DNA of 64,000 bases, taken from positions 24,466-88,465 of the forward strand of contig JBGSRW010000008.1 in NCBI GenBank assembly GCA_041737355.1. Reading direction: 5' to 3'. Origin of the DNA: Patescibacteria group bacterium (GTDB lineage Bacteria; Patescibacteriota; Patescibacteriia; XYB2-FULL-38-15). The translations under genes and the position numbers were made by a program. The notes below the pieces were generated by a model, which was given only the letters and a program-made list of their open reading frames with translations, ran no database searches and had not been told where the DNA came from. This document shows, piece after piece, positions 1,867 to 58,257 of this stretch. Each line of letters opens with the position of its first letter. Positions within the stretch are counted from its first letter, which is position 1.

Positions 1867-3644
1867 TGCGGGAAAAAATTAGAAATTTTTGTATTATTGC
1901 TCATATTGATCACGGAAAGTCGACTTTAGCCGACCGTCTTTTGGAATTTACCGGAACGGTAGCTAGGCGGGATATGAAAGATCAAATGCTTGACATGATG
2001 GATCTTGAACGCGAAAGGGGAATTACCATCAAGCTTCAGCCGGTGCGCATGGATTACAAAGAACATATTTTAAATTTAATTGATACGCCAGGACACGTCG
2101 ATTTCAACTATGAAGTCTCTAGGTCACTTGCCGCCGTGGAAGGCGCGCTTCTTTTGGTTGATGCGACGCAAGGTGTCCAGGCCCAGACGCTCGGTAATTT
2201 ATATTTGGCACTGGAACAGAATCTAACAATCATTCCGGTAGTCAATAAAATTGATCTTAAAAATGCCGAAGTGGAAAAAACCGTCCAGGAAATTACCGCC
2301 CTGATCGGCTGCAAAAAGGAGGAGGTAATTTTGGCTTCGGGGAAAAGCGGGGCCGGAGTTCCGGAAATTTTGGAAGCAGTTGTTAATAAAGTTCCTTCGC
2401 CAAAAGGAGAAATAAGTAAACCGCTGAGGGCGTTGATTTTCGATTCAAAGTACGACGACTACAAGGGAGTCGTCGCTTATGTCAGAGTTGTGGACGGCGA
2501 AGTAAAAAGGGGGGATAAAATATATTTGGCGGCCACCAAAATCGAAAGCGAAGTTTTAGAGGTTGGATATTTTAAACCAAAGTTTGTTCCGGCCGGAAAA
2601 TTATCAGCCGGGGAAATCGGTTATATTGTGACCGGGCTCAAGGAAATAGAAAGATGCCGGGTCGGCGATACTATAACGGTTCACGATCCGGATCTGACAG
2701 TCCAAAGTTTACCGGGGTATAAAGAAGTTAAACCGATGGTTTTTGCCGGAATTTTTTGCAAGGAAGGGGACGATTTTCCGAAACTGCGCGAAGCAATTTT
2801 AAAATTAAAATTGAACGATGCGGCTCTGACTTTTGAAACCGAGCAGTCCAAGGCGCTCGGCTTCGGTTTTCGCTGCGGTCTTTTGGGTTTGTTGCATCTT
2901 GAAATTGTGGAAGAGCGTCTGCGGCGAGAACATAATCTTGACGTGATTGTTACCGTGCCGTCGGTAGCGTACCGTATTACCAACAATAAGGGAGAAGTGT
3001 TGATTATTAAAAGTCCGTCGGAATTGCCCGACATGAGCCATATCAAATTGATCGAAGAGCCGTGGATTAAAATTGATGTGGTTTCTCCGAGCACCTACAT
3101 CGGCGGTATCATGCAAATGGTGCAGGAAAAGAGGGGAGTATATATCGACACGGAATATTTGGATGCCGACCGGGTTATCTTGCATTATGAAATTCCTCTC
3201 TCGGCAATTCTTGTGGATTTTTACGATAAATTAAAAAGTGTGAGCTCCGGCTATGCTTCATTGAATTACGAATTTTTCGGATATAGGGAGGCCGATGTTT
3301 TGAAAATGGATATTTTGGTGGCGACCGAACCGGTTGAGGCGCTCGCGACAATCGTCTACCGCGACACGGCCCAGGATGTCGGGCGGAGAATTGTCCAGTC
3401 TTTAAAAAAAGTTTTGCCGCGCCAGATGTTTGAAGTTAAAATCCAGGCGGCGCTTGGCGGGAAAATTGTCGCCTCGGAACACTTGCCGGCGATGAAAAAG
3501 GATGTGACAGCCAAGCTTTATGGGGGAGATGTAACAAGAAAGAATAAATTGCTTGAAAAACAGAAAAAGGGCAAGAAAAAGATGAAAGCGTTGGGCAAAG
3601 TTGACATTCCACCTGAGGCATTTTTAGCGGTTCTGAAGAAATAG
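1866..3644 (+). CDS. lepA: Elongation factor 4 (LepA)
   Basis: N-terminus IRNFCIIAHIDHGKSTLADRLL with GTPase motifs, 592 aa, LepA-specific C-terminal domain. TAATG overlap with the murJ stop. Confidence 0.95.
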   Translation: MREKIRNFCIIAHIDHGKSTLADRLLEFTGTVARRDMKDQMLDMMDLERERGITIKLQPVRMDYKEHILNLIDTPGHVDFNYEVSRSLAAVEGALLLVDATQGVQAQTLGNLYLALEQNLTIIPVVNKIDLKNAEVEKTVQEITALIGCKKEEVILASGKSGAGVPEILEAVVNKVPSPKGEISKPLRALIFDSKYDDYKGVVAYVRVVDGEVKRGDKIYLAATKIESEVLEVGYFKPKFVPAGKLSAGEIGYIVTGLKEIERCRVGDTITVHDPDLTVQSLPGYKEVKPMVFAGIFCKEGDDFPKLREAILKLKLNDAALTFETEQSKALGFGFRCGLLGLLHLEIVEERLRREHNLDVIVTVPSVAYRITNNKGEVLIIKSPSELPDMSHIKLIEEPWIKIDVVSPSTYIGGIMQMVQEKRGVYIDTEYLDADRVILHYEIPLSAILVDFYDKLKSVSSGYASLNYEFFGYREADVLKMDILVATEPVEALATIVYRDTAQDVGRRIVQSLKKVLPRQMFEVKIQAALGGKIVASEHLPAMKKDVTAKLYGGDVTRKNKLLEKQKKGKKKMKALGKVDIPPEAFLAVLKK

Positions 3645-3766
3645 ACTTAAAAGTTTAAAAGAGAAAAATCACCTGAGAATGGTGATTTTTTGTTTATTTA
3701 TGACAATTTATTTTGGCTAAAATAAGCCAAAAGATAGGATTATTTTAGAAATAGTGTCAAAAGCCC

Positions 3767-3795
3767 TTGACAAAATCTAAGATACGTGTTATACT
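3767..3795 (+). promoter_or_regulatory. Sigma70-type promoter, TTGACA-17-TATACT
   Basis: TTGACA at 3767-3772, 17-nt spacer, TATACT at 3790-3795. Lies in an AT-rich stretch directly upstream of the high-GC island. Confidence 0.5.
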
Positions 3796-3859
3796 TACTT
3801 GTTAAGCTGAAATAGGCTTAAAATAAAAAAAGTGCTTGTCGTGTCAAGTTCTTTACAAA

Positions 3860-4044
3860 GTGCCAGAGAAATTTGGAGGAGGAAGTCTTCGCGGACCATT
3901 TATTGGTAACCGCGTGACTCGGTGTTCGGTTGAGTTAAAGCTCGGTTTTCCCGTTTGGGACTACTAAGATTCAACTCGCCAAAACGCCATTGCTGTTCCA
4001 ATGCTAATTGGAGCGGCGCGCTCACCTCCAAATTCCTCTGGCAC
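3860..4044 (+). other. About 185-nt stem-closed structured element (candidate cis-regulatory leader or small RNA) upstream of ORF 4131
   Basis: GTGCCAGAGAAATTTGGAGG (3860-3879) is reverse-complementary to CCTCCAAATTCCTCTGGCAC (4025-4044) with one mismatch over 20 bp. Internal local hairpins are present (CGCGGACC...GGTAACCGCG). No ORF on either strand. Lies between the promoter at 3767 and the RBS at 4117. Confidence 0.3.
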
Positions 4045-4130
4045 ATCTCCGTGAAAAATCGGAGGGCCAAAGGTCAGACTGTGGATGTTCCCGGTCTGAT
4101 TTTAGTAAACGCAAATAAGGAGGTTTTCTG

Positions 4131-5384
4131 ATGGAGAACGGCAGCAAGGAGATTGTGGTTGGCAAGGAGCCGACGGCTACGGCCGAGGCGTTCCTCGAGC
4201 CGCCGAGCGAGGACGACGAGTGGTTGCTCCTGGATTTCAATCCGGCGGCGACCGAGTCCGCGCCGGCCGTGCCCGAGACGCCGAAGCCCAAGCCGCCGCG
4301 CGTCTGCGCGATCTGCCAGCACCCCTCCGGGAATTCGGTGGGCAAGATCAAGCGCGGGCGGATCGCCGAGGTCGAGCACGAAGGGATGAAGCTGCTCACG
4401 CTCGAACCAATCTGCGAACCGTGCGGCGAGAAGTTGCCGCCCGAGGAGCGGAAGAGGCTCTTCAAGGCGGGGTACCTCATCTCCCTGATCGGCGAGAAGA
4501 ACCGCGAGATGCGCGAGTTCGAGGCGGCCAAGGCCTACTGGGCTGCGGTCTTCGCCGGTACGGCAGAGCGGATGCCCGAGGCTCGCAAGACGCCCGAGGA
4601 GATGCTCTCCTGCGGGGTGCCCGGCTGCCCCCGCTGTCACGATCAGGTCGGCCACAAGGTCGGCCACTTCGTGGCGATGACGATCGGCGGCATGCCGACG
4701 CTTCTCGGGGTCTGCTCCTTCCAGGCCGCGGCCTTGGCACAGTGCGGGGTCGAAAAGAAGGGCATCGTCGTGACGACGAAGTTCTCCGTGGCCGCCCCGA
4801 TCGTCGAGGCGGAGAACGCCAGGCTCCAGGCCTTCGAGAAGGCCAAGAGTTTCTGGCTCGCCGTGGCCGAAGGCGAGGCGGCGGTCGAGGCGCGGGCCGA
4901 GAAGACCGAGCGCGGCGACATCTACCGCTGCGGCGTCCCCGGCTGCAAGTGCCGGGAGCACGGCGACCGGCCGGTCGACTACTTCGTGGTCTTGGACGGC
5001 CAGCCCGAGATGCCCATCGCGGGTGTCTGCCGATACCAGTATGCGGCGCTCCGGACCTCCGGGGTGAAGATCTTCGCCGCGAACAACAACGACGGGATGG
5101 GCCTCGCGCGGTGCGCCAAGCACCGCAACTGGCTCCTCGGCCAGGCCAAGAGGGCCATCCGCGACGTCCGGAGGCCGGACGGAATCGGCGGCGGTCTCTC
5201 CCGTTTCCGCTCGCCCGAAGAACAGGCGCGGATCCGCGAGGAGAAGCGCCGGACGTTCGAGGAGCGCGAGGCCAAGCGCCGCTCCCGGCAACTCGAGCGG
5301 GCCAAGGCCTCCTCCAGCAAGGCCGGCTGCGGCAAGAAGGCCAGCAGCAAGAAGGGCGGCAAGGGCGGCGGCAAGAAGCACTAG
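4131..5384 (+). CDS. Hypothetical high-GC Cys-rich protein with N-terminal zinc ribbon, two tandem CxxxxCxxC...C modules and a Lys/Arg-rich C-terminal tail
   Basis: RBS AAGGAGG at 4117-4123, 7 nt before the ATG. High GC with GC-rich third codon positions. Zinc ribbon CAICQHP...CEPCGEK. Duplicated module CGVPGCPRCHDQ...GVCSFQAAAL and CGVPGCKCREHG...GVCRYQYAAL. Tail KKASSKKGGKGGGKKH. Antisense and alternate-frame ORFs are Arg/Pro-rich artefacts. Confidence 0.6.
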   Translation: MENGSKEIVVGKEPTATAEAFLEPPSEDDEWLLLDFNPAATESAPAVPETPKPKPPRVCAICQHPSGNSVGKIKRGRIAEVEHEGMKLLTLEPICEPCGEKLPPEERKRLFKAGYLISLIGEKNREMREFEAAKAYWAAVFAGTAERMPEARKTPEEMLSCGVPGCPRCHDQVGHKVGHFVAMTIGGMPTLLGVCSFQAAALAQCGVEKKGIVVTTKFSVAAPIVEAENARLQAFEKAKSFWLAVAEGEAAVEARAEKTERGDIYRCGVPGCKCREHGDRPVDYFVVLDGQPEMPIAGVCRYQYAALRTSGVKIFAANNNDGMGLARCAKHRNWLLGQAKRAIRDVRRPDGIGGGLSRFRSPEEQARIREEKRRTFEEREAKRRSRQLERAKASSSKAGCGKKASSKKGGKGGGKKH

Positions 5385-5407
5385 CTGGCCGGCCGCTCTC
5401 CCACCAA

Positions 5408-5542
5408 TTTGTTCTTTTCTTGGAGCAAGTAGTCTGTGCAATGCAGACACTGTTCGTCAATCACTCTAAGGTGAACGGCGACAGGATCTTGCTCCAAGTC
5501 CTTTTCCTCCAAATCAGCGTAAGTTGGTCTGGAGAAAAGGGA
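5408..5542. repeat. Direct repeat copy 1 (135 bp), 24 nt after the stop of ORF 4131-5384
   Basis: Near-identical to 6107-6236 apart from a 5-nt indel. Contains a 10-bp inverted repeat TTGGAGCAAG...CTTGCTCCAA, an inner GTCTG/CAGAC hairpin and a second CCTTTTCCTCCA...TCTGGAGAAAAGG stem. Confidence 0.9.
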
Positions 5543-5597
5543 ATTAGCTCTTTGGCAATTTCGGCGCATAGCGCCGTAGAAAGAAAGGAGATAGTTG

Positions 5598-5930
5598 ATG
5601 GTTCAGGTTCTGATGCTGGCCCTGTTCAGCGTCGCCAAGCGCGACGAACGCGAGGCGAGCGACGAGGGCAGTGAGACCGACGCGGTCGAGCTGCCCGAGG
5701 ATTCGGTCAACTGGCGGGCGGTTCGTTGGCTGGGCGTCGCGAAGATGCCGCGCCGTCGGGGTGGTCGGGCGGCCAACCGTTGCCTTGCCGACATCCCGCC
5801 GCCACCGGTTCGTTTCTCGCGCGAAGGGTTTGACGGACTTCATTCGTGGAAGCGTCAGACTCCGGCCCGCCGTCAGTGGGCCAAGCATCTTCGGAAATCT
5901 TGGGGGCGCGGAAAGAAGGTGGAGGTATGA
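5598..5930 (+). CDS. Hypothetical high-GC small protein (110 aa)
   Basis: RBS AAAGGAG 6-7 nt before ATG 5598. High GC with GC-rich third codon positions in the 5' two-thirds. Stop overlaps the next start (ATGA), indicating translational coupling. No recognisable domain. Confidence 0.35.
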   Translation: MVQVLMLALFSVAKRDEREASDEGSETDAVELPEDSVNWRAVRWLGVAKMPRRRGGRAANRCLADIPPPPVRFSREGFDGLHSWKRQTPARRQWAKHLRKSWGRGKKVEV

Positions 5931-6106
5931 AGAAGGAGTGTCGCAAGAGCGTGCCGGAGGTCAAGACGGGAGAGGGTGTTTACATCCTCCGCGTCATGCC
6001 CCAGCCGTCCGTCTGCGCGCACGAGGCGGTCCGTCCCTCCACCCGGCCGATCATACGCTCCGCCATCAAGATCGTCGGCCAGCACGGCCGCGACTGTCTC
6101 CCATAG
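5927..6106 (+). CDS. Hypothetical high-GC small protein (59 aa), translationally coupled to ORF 5598
   Basis: GGAGG 6 nt before ATG 5927. ATGA start/stop overlap with the upstream ORF. Stop TAG at 6104-6106 is immediately followed by repeat copy 2. Confidence 0.35.
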   Translation: MKKECRKSVPEVKTGEGVYILRVMPQPSVCAHEAVRPSTRPIIRSAIKIVGQHGRDCLP

Positions 6107-6236
6107 TTTGTTCTTGGAGCAAGTAGTCTGTGCAATGCAGACACTGTTCGTCAATCACTCTAAGGTGAACGGCGACAGGATCTTGCTCCAAGTCCTTTTC
6201 CTCCAAATCAGCGTAAGTTGGTCTGGAGAAAAGGGA
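6107..6236. repeat. Direct repeat copy 2 (130 bp), starting the nucleotide after the stop of ORF 5927-6106
   Basis: Near-identical to 5408-5542. Both copies diverge from each other right after ...GGAGAAAAGGGA. Confidence 0.9.
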
Positions 6237-6286
6237 TTCCAAAATTTTTTAGCCATTTTTACGGCTAGTCAGATCCCACGCAAGGG

Positions 6287-6316
6287 CACCGCCAGTTGGC
6301 GGTGTTTTTGTTTTTA
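6287..6316 (+). terminator. Rho-independent terminator closing the high-GC island
   Basis: CACCGCCAGTTGGCGGTG hairpin (7-bp stem) followed by TTTTTGTTTTT. Confidence 0.6.
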
Positions 6317-6319
6317 AAA

Positions 6320-6330
6320 TGTGCTATAAT
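6320..6330 (+). promoter_or_regulatory. Extended -10 promoter TGTGCTATAAT
   Basis: TGnTATAAT with no obvious -35. The same TGTGCTATAAT 11-mer recurs at 8644, 17284 and 26870, with close variants at 10271 and 16112. Confidence 0.4.
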
Positions 6331-6360
6331 AGTCCAATATTTATTTTACGTAATGTTTTT

Positions 6361-6459
6361 ATGAAAAAGAAAAATTTGCAGAAAATAGTATGGATAATTG
6401 TCTCAGCTATTGTAGTTTTTTCCATGGTTGTCTGGACAATCGGGCCAATGCTGTATTAG
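6361..6459 (+). CDS. Possible 32-aa hydrophobic micro-protein (MKKKNLQKIVWIIVSAIVVFSMVVWTIGPMLY)
   Basis: ATG 30 nt downstream of the -10 at 6325-6330. KKK followed by a single TM-like helix. No Shine-Dalgarno. Below the ORF-track length cutoff. Confidence 0.2.
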   Translation: MKKKNLQKIVWIIVSAIVVFSMVVWTIGPMLY

Positions 6460-6489
6460 CCGCGGAGTTTGTAATTTGTTATTAAAAGT

Positions 6490-8220
6490 ATGAAGTGGAA
6501 AGTCGCCGAACCGATCAGCGAAGAATTCAGAAATAAATTTCCGGAGATCGATCCGGTTATTTTGCAATTACTCGCTAACCGTGGGGTAAAAACCCAGGAA
6601 CAGATTGATGAATTTCTGTATCCAGATTACGGGCCTGATATTCACGATCCGTTTTTATTTTTGGATATGGAAAAAGCGGTCGAGCGGGTTTTCCGGGCGG
6701 TGGAGAAAGGAGAAAAAATTACGGTTCATGGCGATTACGACGCCGACGGAGTTTGCTCGGCATTGATCGTAGTCAGTACGCTCGAAGCCATGGGTGCTAA
6801 AGCCGAGGTTTATCTGCCGCACCGCGAACTCGAAGGGTATGGACTGAATATGCAAACAGTTGAAGAGTTGGGGAAAAGAGGGACAAATCTTATTATTACA
6901 ACCGACTGCGGCATCAGTAATCGGGAAGAGATAAAAAGAGCGGTTGAACTTGGAATGGAAGTAATTGTCACCGACCATCATGCCGAGCCGCTTAATTTGC
7001 CCGAGGCAGCTTTGGCAATTATCAATCCCCATTTGGCGCGAGAAAAGTATCCTTTTAAGGAATTGTCCGGGGCGGGAGTAGCTTTCAAATTCGTTCAGGG
7101 GATTTTACATAAAATAAAAACAACGGCGCCAAAAATAGAATTCAGGGAAGACCCGGAGGGATTTGAAAAATGGCTTCTGGATCTTACGGCTATTGCCACG
7201 ATTGCCGACATCATGCCCCTCTTGGGCGAGAACCGGACGATCGTAAAATACGGCTTGATTGTCCTGAACAAAACCAAACGGCTGGGATTGAAAAAAATGA
7301 TTGATTCGCTGGGCTTGAACAAGGCAAAATTGCTTGACGCAAGAAACGTATCTTTTCAGATTAGTCCGCGGCTGAACGCGGCCGGCCGGATCGACCACGC
7401 CAACCAGGCCTATGAACTTTTAAAAACATCGGACGGGAACGAAGTTGATAAATTGGTCGCGGCCCTGAATAAAACCAACGAAGACAGGCAAGCGCTTTCC
7501 GAGCGCGTAACGGCCGAAGCCAAGGAGAAAATAGGAGAAGAGGTTGGCGAAAGAAAAGTTTTGTTCGCCGTGGGTAAGGGTTGGCCGATAGGTATTGTCG
7601 GATTGGTAGCCGGGAAAATAGCCGATAATTTATGGCGGCCGACTTTTATTATGGCAGAAAAAGAGGGGAACATTATGGGGTCGGGAAGGAGTATTCCGGA
7701 ATTTGATATTATGGAAGGGCTCAGGGAGGCGAAAGAATTTTTGTCACATTACGGCGGACACGCCGGAGCCTGCGGATTTACCCTGAAAAATAAAAAAGAT
7801 CTGAAGAGGTTTGAAAAGACCCTGGAGAAATTTGCTGAAAAAAAATTAGCCGGCTCGGAACTTGTCCCAAGCCTGAATATTGACTCGGAAGTTAAACTGG
7901 AAAAAATAAATTGGGAGCTTTTCGAGCTCTTGGAAAAATTTTCACCATTCGGGAAGGGGAATGAGCGGCCGAGATATTTGGGGAGGGGTTTGACGGTCGA
8001 AAGCTTTGAAGGGGTGGGAAATAATGGAAATCATTTACGCATAAATTTGAGCCACGAAAACGGCCAAAAGAAAAAATTTATAGGTTTTTGTTTTGGAAGC
8101 TGGTGCGAGAAATTAAAAGCGGGAGATAAAATTGATGTAGTTTTTGAAATTGATGTTAATGAATGGAACGGGAACAGGGAACTGCAGATGAAAATTATTG
8201 ATTTAAAACATAGCGAATAA
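6490..8220 (+). CDS. recJ: Single-stranded-DNA-specific exonuclease RecJ (DHH/DHHA1)
   Basis: Core GDYDADGVCS...TDHH with DHH and DHHA1 motifs, 576 aa. Confidence 0.9.
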   Translation: MKWKVAEPISEEFRNKFPEIDPVILQLLANRGVKTQEQIDEFLYPDYGPDIHDPFLFLDMEKAVERVFRAVEKGEKITVHGDYDADGVCSALIVVSTLEAMGAKAEVYLPHRELEGYGLNMQTVEELGKRGTNLIITTDCGISNREEIKRAVELGMEVIVTDHHAEPLNLPEAALAIINPHLAREKYPFKELSGAGVAFKFVQGILHKIKTTAPKIEFREDPEGFEKWLLDLTAIATIADIMPLLGENRTIVKYGLIVLNKTKRLGLKKMIDSLGLNKAKLLDARNVSFQISPRLNAAGRIDHANQAYELLKTSDGNEVDKLVAALNKTNEDRQALSERVTAEAKEKIGEEVGERKVLFAVGKGWPIGIVGLVAGKIADNLWRPTFIMAEKEGNIMGSGRSIPEFDIMEGLREAKEFLSHYGGHAGACGFTLKNKKDLKRFEKTLEKFAEKKLAGSELVPSLNIDSEVKLEKINWELFELLEKFSPFGKGNERPRYLGRGLTVESFEGVGNNGNHLRINLSHENGQKKKFIGFCFGSWCEKLKAGDKIDVVFEIDVNEWNGNRELQMKIIDLKHSE

Positions 8221-25740: not shown

Positions 25741-26808
25741 ATGCGAATGCCAAAGGGTAGAAGGCCGCACACTGTGCTTTGCGCTAACCGGCGAGCCGGC
25801 TGGCGCTTTGAACAATGGTCGGAGTTGGACCAGTGGAGCCTCGAGGCCGGCATCAGAACATATGCCCTATCAGAGATCGAAGAGCTCGATCCCGTCATCG
25901 CGAATTTCGATGACGAGACGCTGCTTCTCCTGATTTACGGCGGGGACGGAACCCTGCTTCAGATTATGAACAGCTTGCTCCGGCGCAAACGGCGCAAGGG
26001 CAAGCCAAAGCCGAAAATGCCGATCATTGTGCCCGTCGGAGGAGGCACGATGAAACGCCTGCCGCGCTGGGCGCTTTGGAACGGCACGCCGGCTGAAAAT
26101 GCCATGACAGCCCTTGAACTTTTCGAGGGCAAGCGTCTGCCGTACCTGCCTCTTCCCTTGCTAAAAGTGGAGTGGGGTGGGCAATGCTACTTCGCGGTCA
26201 CTCTCATGGCTGGAGCCTTGGTTCGTATCATGCAGGAGTACTCGCGTTTCAAGACAACGCCGGCAATTGCCGGACTTTTTTCCGCCGGAGCCTTGGCCGC
26301 CGCGGCCTTTGACAGGCCAAAGTTTTTCACCAGACTCTACGGGCAAATCCGGGCCAAGGTGACCTCCGACGGAGAGGTTCTCGGGACCGAACGGTTCATT
26401 GTCGTGATTCGTGACGTTCTCGAGGAATTGATTTTCTCGATCAAACCGTACAAGGGAATCTGCGCGCCGGGCCAGTCCTTCTCTCTGGCCTACGCCATCG
26501 ACTACCACGAGGTGGCGCGAAAGTTTCCTTGGATTGTTGCGGGAGCGGTTCCCGGCAACGACCCCCGGTATTTCAATCGGCCGGCAAGTTTAACCGTAAT
26601 CGAGCCGCACGAGGAGATTCCCTTTACGCTCGACGGCGAATACTTTACGGCCAAGCCGGGCGAGACCATCAAGGTTTCCCAGGGGCCGGAAGTAAGAGTT
26701 GCCGTTAACCCGTTCGTTCATCTGACTCTTCTGAAACGGTTTTTGAATCGCGGCAGAAGCTTGAAGGAGGTCGTGAGTTACATTTTTCCTACGCCGAGAA
26801 AGAACTAG
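25741..26808 (+). CDS. Lipid kinase, diacylglycerol-kinase catalytic domain family (YegS/DgkB-like), high GC
   Basis: Signature LLLIYGGDGTLLQIMNSL (GGDGT motif of DAGK_cat). RBS GGAGGAAGGAG. GC much higher than flanking genes. Confidence 0.7.
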   Translation: MRMPKGRRPHTVLCANRRAGWRFEQWSELDQWSLEAGIRTYALSEIEELDPVIANFDDETLLLLIYGGDGTLLQIMNSLLRRKRRKGKPKPKMPIIVPVGGGTMKRLPRWALWNGTPAENAMTALELFEGKRLPYLPLPLLKVEWGGQCYFAVTLMAGALVRIMQEYSRFKTTPAIAGLFSAGALAAAAFDRPKFFTRLYGQIRAKVTSDGEVLGTERFIVVIRDVLEELIFSIKPYKGICAPGQSFSLAYAIDYHEVARKFPWIVAGAVPGNDPRYFNRPASLTVIEPHEEIPFTLDGEYFTAKPGETIKVSQGPEVRVAVNPFVHLTLLKRFLNRGRSLKEVVSYIFPTPRKN

Positions 26809-30376: not shown

Positions 30377-30928
30377 ATGAATATCGGAAAACCAAAATTA
30401 TTGCTTCATGTTTGCTGCGGAGTTTGCGGATCGTGGGTTATAAAAAAACTTTCCCGCGATTTCGAAACCTGCCTTTATTTTTTTAATCCGAATATCCATC
30501 CCGAAGAAGAGTATAGGCGGAGGCTTGACGCGGTAAAAAGGGTAGCCGACGAAATTGGCGCGGAATTGGTTTTGGGGAAATACCAGCCCGACGGATGGCT
30601 TACCTTGGTGCGCGGCCGGGAAGCCGACCCGGAAGGCGGTGAGCGCTGCGAAATGTGTTTTGGCCTTCGCCTCGGCGAGGCGGCAAAATATGCCAAAGAA
30701 CACGGTTTTGAATATTTTGCCTCAACATTGACGGTCGGGAGAAATAAAAAGGCATCAGTGATAAATCCGCTGGGTGAAAAATGGGCAAAACAGTTCGGTC
30801 TCACGTTCTTGGCGGAAGATTTCAAAAAACGCGGCGGGCAGGAAAAGACGCACGAAGAATCGCACCGCCTTAATTTATACCGTCAAAATTATTGCGGCTG
30901 TCTCTACTCAATGAGAAAAGGTGCTTGA
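30377..30928 (+). CDS. queH: Epoxyqueuosine reductase QueH (DUF208)
   Basis: LLLHVCCGVCGS N-terminal motif and C-terminal YRQNYCGCLYS. 183 aa. Confidence 0.8.
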   Translation: MNIGKPKLLLHVCCGVCGSWVIKKLSRDFETCLYFFNPNIHPEEEYRRRLDAVKRVADEIGAELVLGKYQPDGWLTLVRGREADPEGGERCEMCFGLRLGEAAKYAKEHGFEYFASTLTVGRNKKASVINPLGEKWAKQFGLTFLAEDFKKRGGQEKTHEESHRLNLYRQNYCGCLYSMRKGA

Positions 30929-30953
30929 CAAAATAAATTTTTTAATATAAAAC
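30925..30953 (+). promoter_or_regulatory. TTGACA-type promoter (CTTGACAAAAT...TATAAA) overlapping the queH stop
   Basis: TTGACA at 30925-30930; TATAAA or TAAAAC at 15-17 nt spacing. Followed by RBS GGAGGAGGGAG. Confidence 0.35.
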
Positions 30954-30971
30954 TCTTCGGAGGAGGGAGAA

Positions 30972-31271
30972 ATGTGGGACGAGGATATTACCGACGAAAA
31001 GTCGGTACGTTGGAAGGATTCCAAAAACGCCGAAATTTTCGGCAGCGATCAGGAACCGTTTCCAGTCGCAAGGGTGCGGGAAGATGAATGCGTTCCCGTC
31101 TGTACTTGCGCCGGCAGGGGCGGCAGTTTATTCAACGGCGGACATAGTCCGCGTTGTGAAATCCGGACGAAAAAAGTCGTGGGGACTTTCGTAACGGTTT
31201 TGATGAACGGCCGGCACCGGTCGTTTCCCGAGGAATTGTTTGAAGTCGCGCCCAGACCGTGGGGGAAATAG
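30972..31271 (+). CDS. Hypothetical small Cys-containing protein (99 aa), stand-alone unit
   Basis: Own promoter, strong RBS and terminator. ECVPVCTCAG...SPRCE. Higher GC than the backbone. Confidence 0.5.
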   Translation: MWDEDITDEKSVRWKDSKNAEIFGSDQEPFPVARVREDECVPVCTCAGRGGSLFNGGHSPRCEIRTKKVVGTFVTVLMNGRHRSFPEELFEVAPRPWGK

Positions 31272-31276
31272 TTTTC

Positions 31277-31306
31277 GCGATGGCTTAAGCGCCGTCGCTT
31301 TTTTTA
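31277..31306 (+). terminator. Rho-independent terminator
   Basis: GCGATGGC-TTAAGC-GCCGTCGC (with one G-U pair) followed by TTTTTTT. Confidence 0.6.
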
Positions 31307-31344
31307 TTTACAAACAAAAGAATTTATTGTAAGATTAGATAAAT

Positions 31345-39947: not shown

Positions 39948-40814
39948 ATGCAAAAAAAGGAGATGTCTCCTGAAAGTGTGAGCGAGTGCGCTCGTCTGAC
40001 TGAAGCGGAACTGGCCAACTTGGGCGTTGTCCTTTCCGCCTACCGTTCTTTCCGAGGCGACCGGCGTCGACATATCGCCTACGTCACGATGCCGATCACG
40101 ACCGGCCGGCGGTTGCGCGACATCCTGACAACGCGCCACGCGAAGAGCGCCGCAGAACTTGCGGCCAAAATCGGCAGAGAGGCCTTTTTTGACCTCGTGA
40201 TCAGACCAAACATCGCGGAGGGAATTGCTTTTGCCGACAGAGTCGCAGCAAGGGATTCACTGCTTTGCGTTGCGCCTTCGGTGTTCAGTGCCAGGTGCTG
40301 GCAATGGTCGCAGGATGCCTACATGTCCCTTTGGTACCGCGTTCTGGGAGAAATGGCCGGAGCGCATTATCTCATGGACGGCTGGGAATACTCCGTCGGC
40401 GGCGTGAAAGAAGCGATGTTTTCCATGGCCATGCAGTGGCGCATCTTCCGGCGCTACAACATCCACAAGATGGCGCAGGCCTGGGGTCTAGAGAATTTTC
40501 ATCCCGGCATGAGCCCGCAAGCGGAAATAGCCGAGCTTGAGCGCATGTGGAGCATCCGCCTTTACGACGAACAGGGCAAGGAACTTCGCATCGATCAAAT
40601 CCTGGCGATGGTTGTTCGCGCAATCAAGGAGCTGGCAAAAAACGGCTTGCCGTACGAGGATCTGCTCGGCCCCGCCCGGAACCTGAAGGGGATGCCCATA
40701 CTGTCACCGCTTATCGGCGGCGGCAACCGGTATGACGAGCCGTTTGTTCCGGAAGTGACGGATGCGTACGTGATGGCGGCAGATGAGCTCGTGGCATTCG
40801 AGGCCGCCCATTAA
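39948..40814 (+). CDS. Hypothetical high-GC protein (288 aa), unknown function
   Basis: RBS AAAGGAGGGAGGG. Very high GC. Alternate frames are Arg-rich artefacts. No recognised motif (YVTMPITTGRR...). Confidence 0.6.
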   Translation: MQKKEMSPESVSECARLTEAELANLGVVLSAYRSFRGDRRRHIAYVTMPITTGRRLRDILTTRHAKSAAELAAKIGREAFFDLVIRPNIAEGIAFADRVAARDSLLCVAPSVFSARCWQWSQDAYMSLWYRVLGEMAGAHYLMDGWEYSVGGVKEAMFSMAMQWRIFRRYNIHKMAQAWGLENFHPGMSPQAEIAELERMWSIRLYDEQGKELRIDQILAMVVRAIKELAKNGLPYEDLLGPARNLKGMPILSPLIGGGNRYDEPFVPEVTDAYVMAADELVAFEAAH

Positions 40815-57930: not shown

Positions 57931-58257
57931 ATGGGACCGGAAATTGCGATCCAGTTGGCCTTGCGCCAGAAGCTGGCAGCTTTCGGCATCAGGAACCACG
58001 TCGAGCCGGAGGTGATTCCGAACGCTTTGAATGCGGTTCGACTTCTGGGTCACAGCCAGATTCTTGTCTTGGGTAGCTGTAGCGCGTCTTCTCCATGGTC
58101 AAAGACCACGGATGAGCCGATCGTGGCTCTGACTTGCAGGATGATCACGGACATGCAGCTCAAGGGAGAGAGGATCGAAATCACAACCACGCCCGACACG
58201 TCCGAGGAACGCGAGAAGACTGGCTTCCGCCGGATCGACCTGCGCCTCAAGAAGTAG
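57931..58257 (+). CDS. Hypothetical high-GC protein (108 aa)
   Basis: Own promoter, RBS and terminator. High GC. No recognised motif. Confidence 0.5.
   Translation: MGPEIAIQLALRQKLAAFGIRNHVEPEVIPNALNAVRLLGHSQILVLGSCSASSPWSKTTDEPIVALTCRMITDMQLKGERIEITTTPDTSEEREKTGFRRIDLRLKK

Follow-up and report, generated by a model that had tools for sequence, protein, structure and literature searches.

The window analyzed here, a 64,000-nucleotide stretch of DNA from a Patescibacteria group bacterium, carries between lepA and recJ a gene for a cysteine-rich protein of 417 amino acids, termed X in this report. The coding sequence occupies positions 4131–5384 of the forward strand, on which the other features of the locus also lie; its GC content is 0.69 overall and 0.93 at third codon positions (GC3). 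The locus raises the question of what kind of protein X is, how it is expressed, and how a gene of such composition is maintained.

Gene X and its reading frame

X is a genuine, lineage-restricted gene, read in the correct frame. The first-pass annotation had delimited the cysteine-rich frame exactly, and several features back it: a Shine–Dalgarno sequence, AAGGAGG, at 4117–4123 ahead of the ATG; GC contents of 0.64, 0.49, and 0.93 at the three codon positions, which give strong three-base periodicity; and retention of the start codon and all module cysteines in homologues down to 25% identity. Several homologues vary in length, yet their reading frames are open.

Several long open reading frames overlap X in other frames, and the X mRNA folds somewhat better than its synonymous shuffles (z = −2.85), as might be expected if the GC-rich stretch were an assembly artefact or encoded a structured RNA and no protein, its long ORFs being due to chance. 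However, the long antisense ORF at 4074–5450 is open in every synonymous shuffle of X and is thus a by-product of high GC3. The long +2-frame ORF at 4220–5674 carries one to five stop codons in most close homologues, so it does not represent a conserved overlapping gene. An overlapping gene in either frame is accordingly rejected, and the contrast between GC3 and the GC content of second positions, the conserved start codon and cysteines, the open frames of homologues of differing length, and the presence of the locus in more than 15 independent assemblies effectively refute a spurious ORF.

Domain architecture of X

X begins with an acidic region (residues 1–55; 4131–4295) that is predicted to be disordered, with pLDDT values below 50 for residues 1–50. 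A putative C4 zinc ribbon follows (4305–4424), in which the knuckles C59-x2-C62 and C95-x2-C98 flank the two strands (residues 75–83 and 86–94) of a β-hairpin in the AlphaFold2 (AF2) model. In an alignment of 19 family members, C95, C98, and C300 never vary, and at least 90% of the sequences have C59 and C62. The AF2 models have a pLDDT of 74 for the whole of X and 83 for module 2 modeled by itself.

Two modules of like build make up the center of the protein. Module 1 (residues 105–215; 4443–4775) consists of a long helix and a Cys knuckle, C161-x4-C166-x2-C169, with C195 at the start of a helix; module 2 (residues 216–330; 4776–5120) repeats this plan with C267-x4-C272-x1-C274 and C300. The two align by BLASTP with E = 2e-15 and 37% identity over 93 residues, showing that the internal duplication is real. 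The Cx4Cx1-2C...C module, with its preceding 30-residue helix and in tandem duplicate, is previously undescribed; no further copies of it were found in the window. The C-terminal part (residues 345–417; 5163–5381) is a basic helix rich in Arg, Lys, and Glu that continues into a Lys/Gly tail ending in ...KKASSKKGGKGGGKKH.

This anatomy largely agrees with what had been proposed at first sight. The acidic N-terminus and the basic Arg/Lys/Glu-rich C-terminus stand as described; the ribbon is present with a spacer of 32 residues and not 34, and the duplicated modules are about 106 residues apart (DNA repeats spaced 315–318 nucleotides) and not about 95. Taken together, these features mark X as a probable zinc-binding protein with a C4 ribbon, two tandem Cx4Cx1-2C...C modules, and a disordered basic tail.

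A rare family outside known domains

The X family comprises about 25 members among billions of proteins, with 9 sequence matches in 5.8 billion proteins and 18 in 1.84 billion representatives. Searches of Pfam, PHROGs, NCBIfam, and PADLOC with X, ORF2, ORF3 (two small downstream ORFs), and distant X members returned no family. A PDB profile search with X gave best E-values of at least 0.2, with eL24/TRASH and eL34 at 0.2–0.5, and in Foldseek comparisons the full X model (searched against PDB and BFVD) and the module model (searched against PDB) yielded nothing below E = 0.07. The suspicion that X lies outside any known family is therefore borne out, and the structure prediction and fold search once recommended for it returned no significant match. 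The accompanying search for homologues and neighborhoods reveals a rare family at a fixed lepA–recJ locus. A link to Actinobacteria found no support, as all X members with readable DNA reside in genomes of about 44–50% GC.

DUF6788 (PF20586) contains a short CG.P.C.C..HG knuckle that aligns with residues 265–281 in module 2. Its score against X is 15.7 bits (E = 0.017), below the gathering threshold of 27.2, over 17 residues only, and matches occur in 4 of 19 family members; membership of X in DUF6788 is rejected on the score and the length of the alignment. A WhiB-like Fe–S protein (C-Xn-C-X2-C-X5-C) is likewise rejected, as the X spacing is Cx4Cx1-2C...x25C and there is no Pfam match.

Searches of phage and plasmid collections with tblastn and blastn gave no matches, and viral contigs scanned with specific patterns for both RNA motifs of the locus (described below) gave none; more than 120 viral-contig matches to a looser pattern for the 3′ motif were judged to be chance, the pattern being under-specified. 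A scan of a genome collection returned a single 5-kb contig labelled Gammaproteobacteria, probably a mislabelling. Literature searches turned up no description of protein X, DUF6788, either RNA, or the compositional anomaly, and no described system with the arrangement of this locus was found.

A free-standing small RNA upstream of X

The gene order murJ–lepA–unit–recJ–rnhA is constant in all related loci. The only promoter-like site on the forward strand between lepA and recJ is a σ70-type promoter at 3767–3795 (TTGACA-17-TATACT with an extended −10 TG; 11 of 12 matches), which is kept in all related loci, including those without X. It precedes a small RNA (sRNA). The 5′ part of this RNA (approximately 3803–3858, from leader comparison) combines a small hairpin that is conserved (UUAAGCUGAAAUAGGCUUAA) with a linker that varies, and some relatives have lineage-specific insertions in this part.

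The core of the RNA, which is novel, lies at 3859–4046; a closing stem of 20 bp (GGAGGAGG with CACCUCC) and a set of three hairpins together form a four-way junction. Across relatives, its 60 pairs are 96% paired and 22 of them have changed on both sides, a level that none of 500 shuffles matches; the fold has a z-score of −7.4 and alifold gives a consensus structure. A small hairpin, CUCCG-UGAAAAAU-CGGAG, with compensatory changes in the alignment, follows at 4047–4064. At 4070–4103 (alifold pairs 224–258) lies a terminator-like hairpin with a U4 tract, the counterpart of the sRNA's own terminator and the presumed point of read-through. This hairpin is kept with U4–5 where ORFs are present and with U7 in loci that lack them.

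Three related loci (L016, L021, and L030) contain promoter, sRNA, and terminator, and neither X nor the 3′ motif; after the U7 terminator, a mini-ORF and recJ have a separate promoter. The four-way-junction RNA of about 190 nucleotides is a gene of its own, promoter and terminator included. Its free-standing occurrence in these three loci excludes a riboswitch or cis-regulatory leader. No Rfam 15 family matches the region 3500–6600 at E ≤ 1, and the single match at E ≤ 10 is a 17-bit chance CRISPR-DR. A resemblance of GGAGGAAGUC to the CR-I element of RNase P RNA is not conserved among relatives, and 6S, SRP, and tmRNA are rejected for lack of Rfam or ARAGORN matches and for wrong topology. 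TRF detects no tandem repeats in 3600–4130.

Downstream ORFs and a duplicated 3′ RNA motif

A second structured RNA follows X at 5412–5548. This 3′ motif (covariance model score 138.6 bits) is a three-way junction closed by an invariant UUGGAGCA/UGCUCCAA stem and followed by a long hairpin. Its 41 pairs are 95.6% paired, with 23 changed on both sides and none of 500 shuffles matching, and the fold of this copy has a z-score of −7.1. A second copy at 6106–6242 scores 136.8 bits; a 126-nucleotide core is 100% identical between the two. The motif is found solely after ORF groups.

Between the copies lie two small ORFs. ORF2 (5598–5930; 110 amino acids; GC3 0.73) is an orphan with an upstream Shine–Dalgarno sequence, AAGGAG; it is 46–57% identical among relatives, and in one of them (P0008) it is fused in frame to half of X. 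ORF3 (5927–6106; 59 amino acids; GC3 0.87) overlaps ORF2 in an ATGA start/stop junction and has a conserved motif, P-P-[VI]-C-x-H-E. An intrinsic terminator recognized by sequence at 6286–6316 (CACCGCC-AGUU-GGCGGUG and a U-run) would end the transcription unit; it is missed by a simple scan and is conserved in two related loci (L001 and L010). The number of such cassettes differs between loci.

Rapid and mosaic evolution of X

Identity among relatives is 89–93% for LepA and 80–89% for RecJ, against 25–57% for X. The dN/dS ratio of X is 0.6–0.9, compared with about 0.04 for its neighbors, and its dS is 0.3–0.5, compared with 1–2.7, indicating that synonymous sites are more constrained in X. The X tree is incongruent with that of RecJ, N- and C-terminal types of X reassort, tail types are shared in mosaic fashion, sRNA variants reassort with X types, and X is missing from close relatives. 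Constraint on X is very weak or diversifying, and lineages exchange X alleles with one another. This pattern points away from housekeeping and toward a presumed role in genetic conflict or another dispensable accessory function. Hypervariable loci at fixed addresses usually mark conflict between host and parasite or symbiont and host; to our knowledge, almost nothing is known of such conflicts in these uncultivated bacteria.

Defence genes typically evolve in this fast and mosaic way, and ToxIN loci have the order promoter, structured RNA, terminator, toxin gene that is also seen here, including a conserved hairpin and U-tract behind the RNA gene. The locus might accordingly be a type III toxin–antitoxin-like or abortive-infection module, in which the structured RNA would neutralize X as a basic RNA-binding toxin and the intervening terminator would set the RNA:protein ratio. 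We consider this highly improbable: the RNA is single-copy and not tandemly repeated, it is kept in genomes without X, X matches neither a ToxN/CptN/TenpN endoribonuclease nor any other PADLOC or Pfam model, and the 3′ motif, ORF2, and ORF3 would be left without a role.

The same rates bear on a histone-like function. The Lys/Gly-rich tail, the long basic helix, the zinc modules, and the strong upstream promoter would suit a nucleoid protein that binds DNA, and a GC-rich gene might escape AT-preferring binding by such a protein. However, abundant architectural proteins normally evolve slowly, whereas X has a high dN/dS ratio and is absent from close relatives. X also shows no Pfam, NCBIfam, PDB, or fold match to HU/IHF, H-NS, Lsr2, Hc1, or any DNA-binding family, and its codon usage is unlike that of the highly expressed pilin gene, all of which makes this reading improbable.

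Extreme base composition confined to coding sequence

X and the two small ORFs have GC3 values of 0.73–0.93, compared with 0.48 for the genome, and the edges of the GC excess are sharp at the start and stop codons. Within X, GC is higher at each codon position (0.64/0.49/0.93 versus 0.53/0.33/0.48), and third positions are poor in A (3%) and T (4%). The excess goes with the ORFs: ORF2 and ORF3 are unrelated to X and also GC3-rich, and GC3 is 0.77–0.87 in distant relatives of X that lie in other contexts. A distant homologue of the sRNA adjoins rpoB, with unrelated ORFs of GC3 0.93–0.95 behind it; at rpoB, homology is weak for the sRNA as well as for the motif (29, 20, and 15.8 bits), and it comes from a search pattern that had pre-selected the stem sequence. 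Further orphan genes of the window are intermediate, with GC3 of 0.68–0.74.

On the favored reading, the extreme GC3 of these ORFs is actively maintained. As the excess ends exactly at ORF borders, it is attributed to selection on translated regions, and selection at the codon or mRNA level of this transcript would keep GC3 extreme. The preference for AAG, GAG, and CAG codons differs from the usage of the pilin gene, the only gene of the window that is presumed to be highly expressed, so ordinary translational optimization is rejected as the form of this selection.

Recombination offers another route to such composition. At a hot spot under diversifying selection, GC-biased heteroduplex repair could drive both GC3 and amino-acid change, the protein composition of X being a by-product. 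Such repair operates at polymorphic sites alone and could therefore raise GC here, whereas the conserved RNA motifs, with few such sites, would escape the bias. Reassortment of sRNA type, X type, and flanks, the elevation of GC at all codon positions inversely to constraint, and the low dS and high dN of X are in keeping with this explanation. It is nonetheless unlikely: a 47-nucleotide lineage-specific, presumably unconstrained insertion in the 3′ motif has only 47% GC, the variable linkers of the sRNA 5′ part are AT-rich, and a shift from 0.48 to 0.93 exceeds any precedent for biased conversion in bacteria that we know of.

Alternatively, the ORFs could be foreign cassettes, repeatedly imported through recombination at the RNA motifs. 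Their donor would be some unseen GC-rich source, be it a mobile element, a phage, or a GC-rich partner of the organism, and their GC content would simply be that of the donor. The mosaic alleles and their incongruence with the RecJ tree, the cassette-like pairing of ORF and 3′ motif, the varying cassette count, and the intermediate GC3 of other orphans in the window would fit. Against this stand the 44–50% GC background of every X member with readable DNA (none is GC-rich), the absence of a recombinase among the genes that directly border the unit, namely murJ and lepA on the upstream side and recJ and rnhA on the downstream side, and the lack of matches in phages, plasmids, and viral contigs. 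GC3 is, moreover, equally high in all lineages despite lepA dS values of 1–2, which would call for continuous replacement. We regard foreign origin as distinctly unlikely.

A proposed mode of expression and function

We favor, with confidence just short of even, the reading that X is a cargo protein that binds zinc and nucleic acid and is expressed when transcription of the sRNA continues past the terminator. The strong promoter would drive the conserved sRNA, and a fraction of transcripts may pass its weakened terminator, as the sequence of the hairpin and U-tract suggests. The read-through transcript would then comprise X, the 3′ motif, ORF2 and ORF3, and the second motif copy, ending at the strong terminator; X would come first among the cargo ORFs of this compound transcription unit. 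The presumed ligand of X is nucleic acid, with RNA the likeliest kind and the conserved RNA elements on the X transcript itself the most plausible targets. Contact would be made through the zinc modules, and the Lys/Gly tail would add affinity of a non-specific kind. A tight, specific ribonucleoprotein is not required, given that X changes faster than its supposed RNA targets and that the sRNA occurs without X.

A broader reading, possible but on the unlikely side, is that the sRNA, the ORFs of extreme GC3, and the 3′ motif constitute a new cassette-bearing genetic unit of small-genome, candidate-phyla-radiation-like bacteria. The conserved, strongly transcribed sRNA gene would serve as an expression platform for interchangeable, unrelated cargo ORFs, of which X would be the commonest. 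A dedicated RNA motif with its own structure would mark off each ORF, and the ORFs would be diversified and exchanged. A unit-specific process would keep the codon usage of the cargo unlike that of the genome. Candidates are selection for translation while tRNAs or ribosomes are in a special state, selection for translation in a different cell altogether, and an undescribed mechanism of biased conversion or copying.

If these readings hold, the locus would be one in which synonymous sites are more constrained than amino-acid sites across unrelated ORFs, and it would offer an exceptionally clean setting in which to ask what fixes codon usage apart from ordinary translational selection and mutation bias. 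It would add two new classes of structured RNA, both strongly supported by covariation and one of them a free-standing sRNA that a lineage of uncultivated bacteria has conserved, and a new zinc-binding module with no fold relative among solved structures. The locus itself is mosaic and hypervariable while its place in the chromosome is fixed.

Comparison with known systems

At the protein level, X resembles the eL24/TRASH-type and eL34 fingers of small basic RNA-binding proteins. Like them, it has a CxxC...CxxC ribbon on a β-hairpin, a Cys knuckle and helix-start Cys that would form a C4 site, and basic helical and disordered tails. Unlike a member of these groups, it has no significant sequence or fold match to them, and its spacing is not that of a described domain.

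At the level of the locus, a diversity-generating retroelement is rejected, as the 3′ motif copies are 100% identical and non-coding and the third codon positions of X are depleted in T as well as in A; the Pfam list of the syntenic locus L001 contains no reverse transcriptase, RVT_3 (RNase H-type) occurring on rnhA only. ToxIN shares the series of promoter, structured RNA, partly passed intrinsic terminator, and gene for a fast-evolving protein, but here the RNA is conserved without the protein, additional ORFs and 3′ motifs are present, and X is unrelated to ToxN. Co-transcription of an sRNA and an ORF, as in the 6S RNA operon ssrS–ygfA of E. coli and in dual-function sRNAs, likewise places a structured RNA 5′ of a protein gene. 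In this locus, however, the RNA matches no Rfam family (6S, SRP, tmRNA, or RNase P), and the ORFs downstream of it are hypervariable and GC-shifted.

Integron cassettes and attC clusters without integrase offer a further parallel, with variable, compositionally deviant ORFs that are each followed by a conserved structured element, one upstream promoter, and a cassette number that varies between relatives. The locus does not match an integron, as no IntI lies next to the array, whose neighbors are murJ and lepA upstream and recJ, rnhA, and pil genes downstream. Whereas attC is a single imperfect hairpin with RYYYAAC...GTTRRRY core sites, the 3′ motif is a three-way junction with a separate hairpin and UUGGAGCA/UGCUCCAA ends, and the ORFs at each position of this locus are homologous between genomes.

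Gene structure and family of the Cys-rich protein

X is a Cys-rich protein of 417 aa encoded on the plus strand at 4131–5384, with its start 7 nt past the Shine-Dalgarno sequence AAGGAGG. The ORF is present as the first-pass annotation described it, apart from slightly wrong spacings. Its frame, which that annotation had left open to challenge, is correct: GC at codon positions 1, 2 and 3 is 0.64, 0.49 and 0.93, the start and all module cysteines are kept in homologues down to ~25% identity, and the ORF remains open although homologues differ in length. An antisense ORF over X (458 aa) is open in all synonymous shuffles and is thus a trivial consequence of missing A/T-ending codons. An overlapping +2-frame gene was rejected, as this frame is broken in most close homologues. 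Stop codons in the +2 frame of the homologues are ~2.3-fold rarer than in synonymous shuffles (42 observed against ~96 expected, summed over 12 homologues), which probably reflects codon-boundary dinucleotide bias.

The acidic N-terminus (residues 1–55, predicted disordered) and the Arg/Lys/Glu-rich C-terminal region, which terminates in KKASSKKGGKGGGKKH, are both confirmed. Between them lie a C4 ribbon, C59-x2-C62-x32-C95-x2-C98, and two modules (residues 105–215 and 216–330). The CxxC pairs of the ribbon had been recognized correctly, with a spacer of x34 instead of the actual x32; the proposed internal duplication likewise holds (module 1 versus module 2, BLASTP E=2e-15, 37% identity), with the modules ~106 rather than ~95 residues apart. 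Both share the pattern ...F-x-A-A-K-x-(Y/F)-W-x-x-V-x-x-G ... C-G-V-P-G-C-x(1,2)-C ... F-V ... G-V-C-x-x-Q-x-A-A-L. An AF2 model of whole X (pLDDT 73.7) places the ribbon hairpin before two successive units, each a 30-residue helix followed by a small beta-sheet and a further helix; a long basic helix comes after them. Module 2, modeled with 24 module sequences as input, reaches a pLDDT of 83 and a pTM of 0.70.

The earlier failure to place X in a known family is borne out by searches of Pfam, PHROGs, NCBIfam, PADLOC and PDB, none of which gives a significant match. Pfam yields a single sub-threshold match (DUF6788 at the module-2 knuckle, 17 residues, 15.7 bits versus 27.2), PHROGs, NCBIfam and PADLOC yield zero, and the X family profile against all PDB sequences returns only matches at E>=0.2, to eL24/TRASH and eL34. 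A word-indexed search of 5.8 billion proteins recovers 9 proteins, and 18 emerge when 1.84 billion cluster representatives are searched exhaustively with a profile. Module number in these ranges from one to three; the N-terminal ribbon is usually present, and a Lys/Gly tail is missing only rarely. The comparison shows X to be a real orphan protein of zinc-finger type.

On a 3.4-kb JGI contig, the X homologue P0008 consists of the N-terminal half (ribbon and module 1) fused in frame to ORF2, a small ORF that otherwise follows X. The arrangement implies that a deletion took out module 2 together with the tail and copy 1 of a structured 3' motif, and suggests that a single polypeptide can combine X and ORF2.

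A structured RNA upstream and a repeated motif downstream

A sigma-70 promoter upstream of X (3767–3795; 11/12 match, extended -10) precedes a conserved structured RNA (sRNA). Its core (3859–4046) comprises a 20-bp closing stem, in which GGAGGAGG pairs with CACCUCC, and three hairpins. Over 12 distinct sequences, pairing holds in 96% of cells, and 22/60 pairs have changed on both sides; none of 500 shuffles and no slid register comes close. Next come a hairpin (4047–4064) and, at 4070–4103, a second hairpin that resembles a terminator and carries four U. The sRNA has zero matches in Rfam 15. ARAGORN finds no tRNA gene in the whole window (1–64000), where Rfam families are likewise absent at gathering threshold.

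A metagenome pattern scan for the sRNA identified 21 loci, and X-like, GC-rich ORFs occur in seven further loci from the scan. Three loci (L016, L021 and L030; LepA 81%, RecJ 69%) keep the murJ-lepA-...-recJ synteny, the promoter and the sRNA (160–163 bits), and lack X, ORF2/3 and the 3' motif. In these, a U7 terminator closes the sRNA and the recJ-proximal promoter lies directly after it. Presence of the sRNA without the other elements indicates that it is encoded by an independent gene.

The cargo ORFs X, ORF2 (5598–5930) and ORF3 (5927–6106) lie between the sRNA and a second terminator (6286–6316). Since no further promoter-like site for them was found on the plus strand, they would be expressed by transcription from the sRNA promoter past a weakened sRNA terminator.

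A 126-nt repeat, 100% identical between its copies, follows X (5417–5542) and ORF3 (6111–6236). Across loci this 3' motif folds as a three-way junction, whose invariant closing stem is UUGGAGCA/UGCUCCAA, together with a long hairpin. Covariation is extensive (23/41 pairs changed on both sides, 95.6% of cells pairing, reached by 0/500 shuffles), and the fold z-score is -7.1. In every X locus, a covariance model detects the motif (93–142 bits) immediately downstream of X and, at loci that have ORF2/3, downstream of these as well; it has no other match in the 64-kb window, in X-less loci or near distant X family members. In the minimum-energy fold, the stretch ahead of the motif is predicted to base-pair with the Shine-Dalgarno region of ORF2, which hints at possible translational coupling. 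On its 5' side, the sRNA closing stem (AUUUGGAGGAGGAAGUCUU, 3871–3889) is 79% complementary to the 5' strand of the motif hairpin in both copies (AAGUCCUUUUCCUCCAAAU, 5496–5514 and 6190–6208), so the two could pair at long range or in trans.

Two small plus-strand ORFs elsewhere have their own signals. A conserved, hydrophobic mini-ORF of 32 aa just upstream of recJ (6362–6460; MKKKNLQKIVWIIVSAIVVFSMVVWTIGPMLY) has its own extended -10 promoter and also occurs in L001, L010 and the X-less L021. At 30925–31310, upstream of mnmA, a TTGACAAAA promoter precedes a small stand-alone ORF with CVPVCTC and its own terminator; this ORF does not match the X module profile.

Allele exchange at a fixed locus

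The order murJ-lepA-[unit]-recJ-rnhA-...-pilM is found in every fetched homologue locus of this lineage. Identity to the window proteins is 89–93% for LepA, 78–89% for RecJ (70% in L009), 79–92% for RnhA and 61–90% for an orphan 525-aa neighbor; for X it is 53–57%, 37% or 25%, depending on the locus. By Nei-Gojobori, X has a dN of 0.34–0.44 and a dS of 0.42–0.52 (dN/dS 0.7–0.9; closest pair 0.6), and lepA and recJ have a dN of 0.05–0.15 and a dS of 1.1–2.7. These rates show near-neutral or diversifying evolution of the X protein.

Similarity in X is decoupled from that in RecJ: against the window, L012 scores 88% for RecJ and 29% for X, and L001 scores 89% and 54%. N- and C-terminal types of X recur in different combinations, and two upstream sRNA variants combine freely with X types. 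Together, these mismatches and reshufflings show that alleles are exchanged at the locus by recombination. In L005 (8790–9125) and L006 (3999–4334), a DUF559 gene (Vsr-like very-short-patch-repair endonuclease fold) lies between the X cassette and recJ; this lineage lacks ORF2/ORF3 and the second 3' motif.

Maintained GC bias of the cargo ORFs

GC is 65–73% at 4125–6110 and 45% for the window. GC3 is 0.93 in X, 0.73 in ORF2 and 0.87 in ORF3, against 0.48–0.49 in murJ, lepA and recJ and 0.52 in rnhA. X uses AAG 35 times and AAA 0, TTC 14 and TTT 0, and ATC 15 and ATT 1; adjoining genes favor A/T-ending codons 2–3 fold. In related loci, X GC3 is 0.88–0.96 on backgrounds of 41–50% GC. Because the amino-acid sites of X are almost free and its synonymous sites tighter than those of housekeeping genes, the extreme GC3 is shown to be actively maintained, rather than a mark of un-ameliorated foreign DNA.

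In L022 and L026, a pattern with the stem sequence fixed in advance picked up a distant homologue of the sRNA (20 and 29 bits), which has an extended closing stem and is oriented divergently from rpoB. Downstream lie, in order, a 127-aa ORF (GC3 0.95), a spacer of 46% GC and another ORF (GC3 0.93); rpoB of this genome has a GC3 of 0.52. Homology of this unit is weak: its ORFs match neither the X-family nor the module profile, and the spacer is the top match to the 3' motif model among six loci scanned unfiltered, at a weak 15.8 bits (E 0.03). Three-module X relatives elsewhere (truD-X'-deoC; RNase J-X') have a GC3 of 0.77–0.87 in hosts of 0.40–0.50. The bias is therefore tied to the ORFs of such units and to the X family, not to one chromosomal address.

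Possible rival explanations are that repair is GC-biased because the locus is a hot spot of recombination, or that the ORFs are imported again and again from a GC-rich pool not yet seen. Selection on translated regions is favored because the GC shift is sharp at the start and stop codons of the cargo ORFs, with intervening non-coding elements at 46–50% GC; because a lineage-specific 47-nt insertion of GCGAAT-like repeats in the 3' motif hairpin loop (L001 11385–11432) has 47% GC; and because the structure of X mRNA is only a little stronger than that of synonymous shuffles (z=-2.85). Such selection would differ from usual codon optimization, which is excluded: in the pilin gene, codons ending in C are elevated and those ending in G are not (0.53 and 0.37; X 0.91 and 0.91).

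Three orphan or poorly annotated plus-strand genes (25741–26808, 39948–40814 and 57931–58257) have intermediate GC3 (0.68, 0.69 and 0.74) and prefer G/C-ending codons; the gene at 57931–58257 is served by a separate TTGACAAAA promoter (57859) and a terminator. Acquisition followed by partial amelioration is one possible origin of the three genes, a related phenomenon another.

Proposed role and comparison with known systems

The sRNA, the cargo ORFs and the 3' motifs together make up a compound unit. X would bind zinc at three C4 sites and would also bind nucleic acid. RNA is the favored ligand, as the transcript itself has conserved structures and X combines a build like that of ribosomal proteins with a basic tail. 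Because X is dispensable (absent from close relatives) and hypervariable in a mosaic manner, it may have an accessory, conflict-related role. Judging by gene content and sample types, the source may be an uncultivated bacterium with a small genome; nearly all genes in the window (1–64000) are on the plus strand, and cumulative GC skew rises steadily.

The unit resembles type III toxin-antitoxin loci in its order of RNA, terminator and protein, but lacks tandem RNA repeats and a ToxN-like protein. Like integron cassettes, it places a variable ORF and a structured element behind one promoter; however, the 3' motif has neither attC geometry nor core sites, and the immediate flanks contain no integrase. 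No reverse transcriptase is present at the syntenic L001 locus, and adenine-specific variation is absent. The layout is also reminiscent of sRNA-ORF co-transcripts such as ssrS-ygfA; the RNA has no Rfam match. As all testable defining features of the compared systems failed, the unit is classed outside every described kind.
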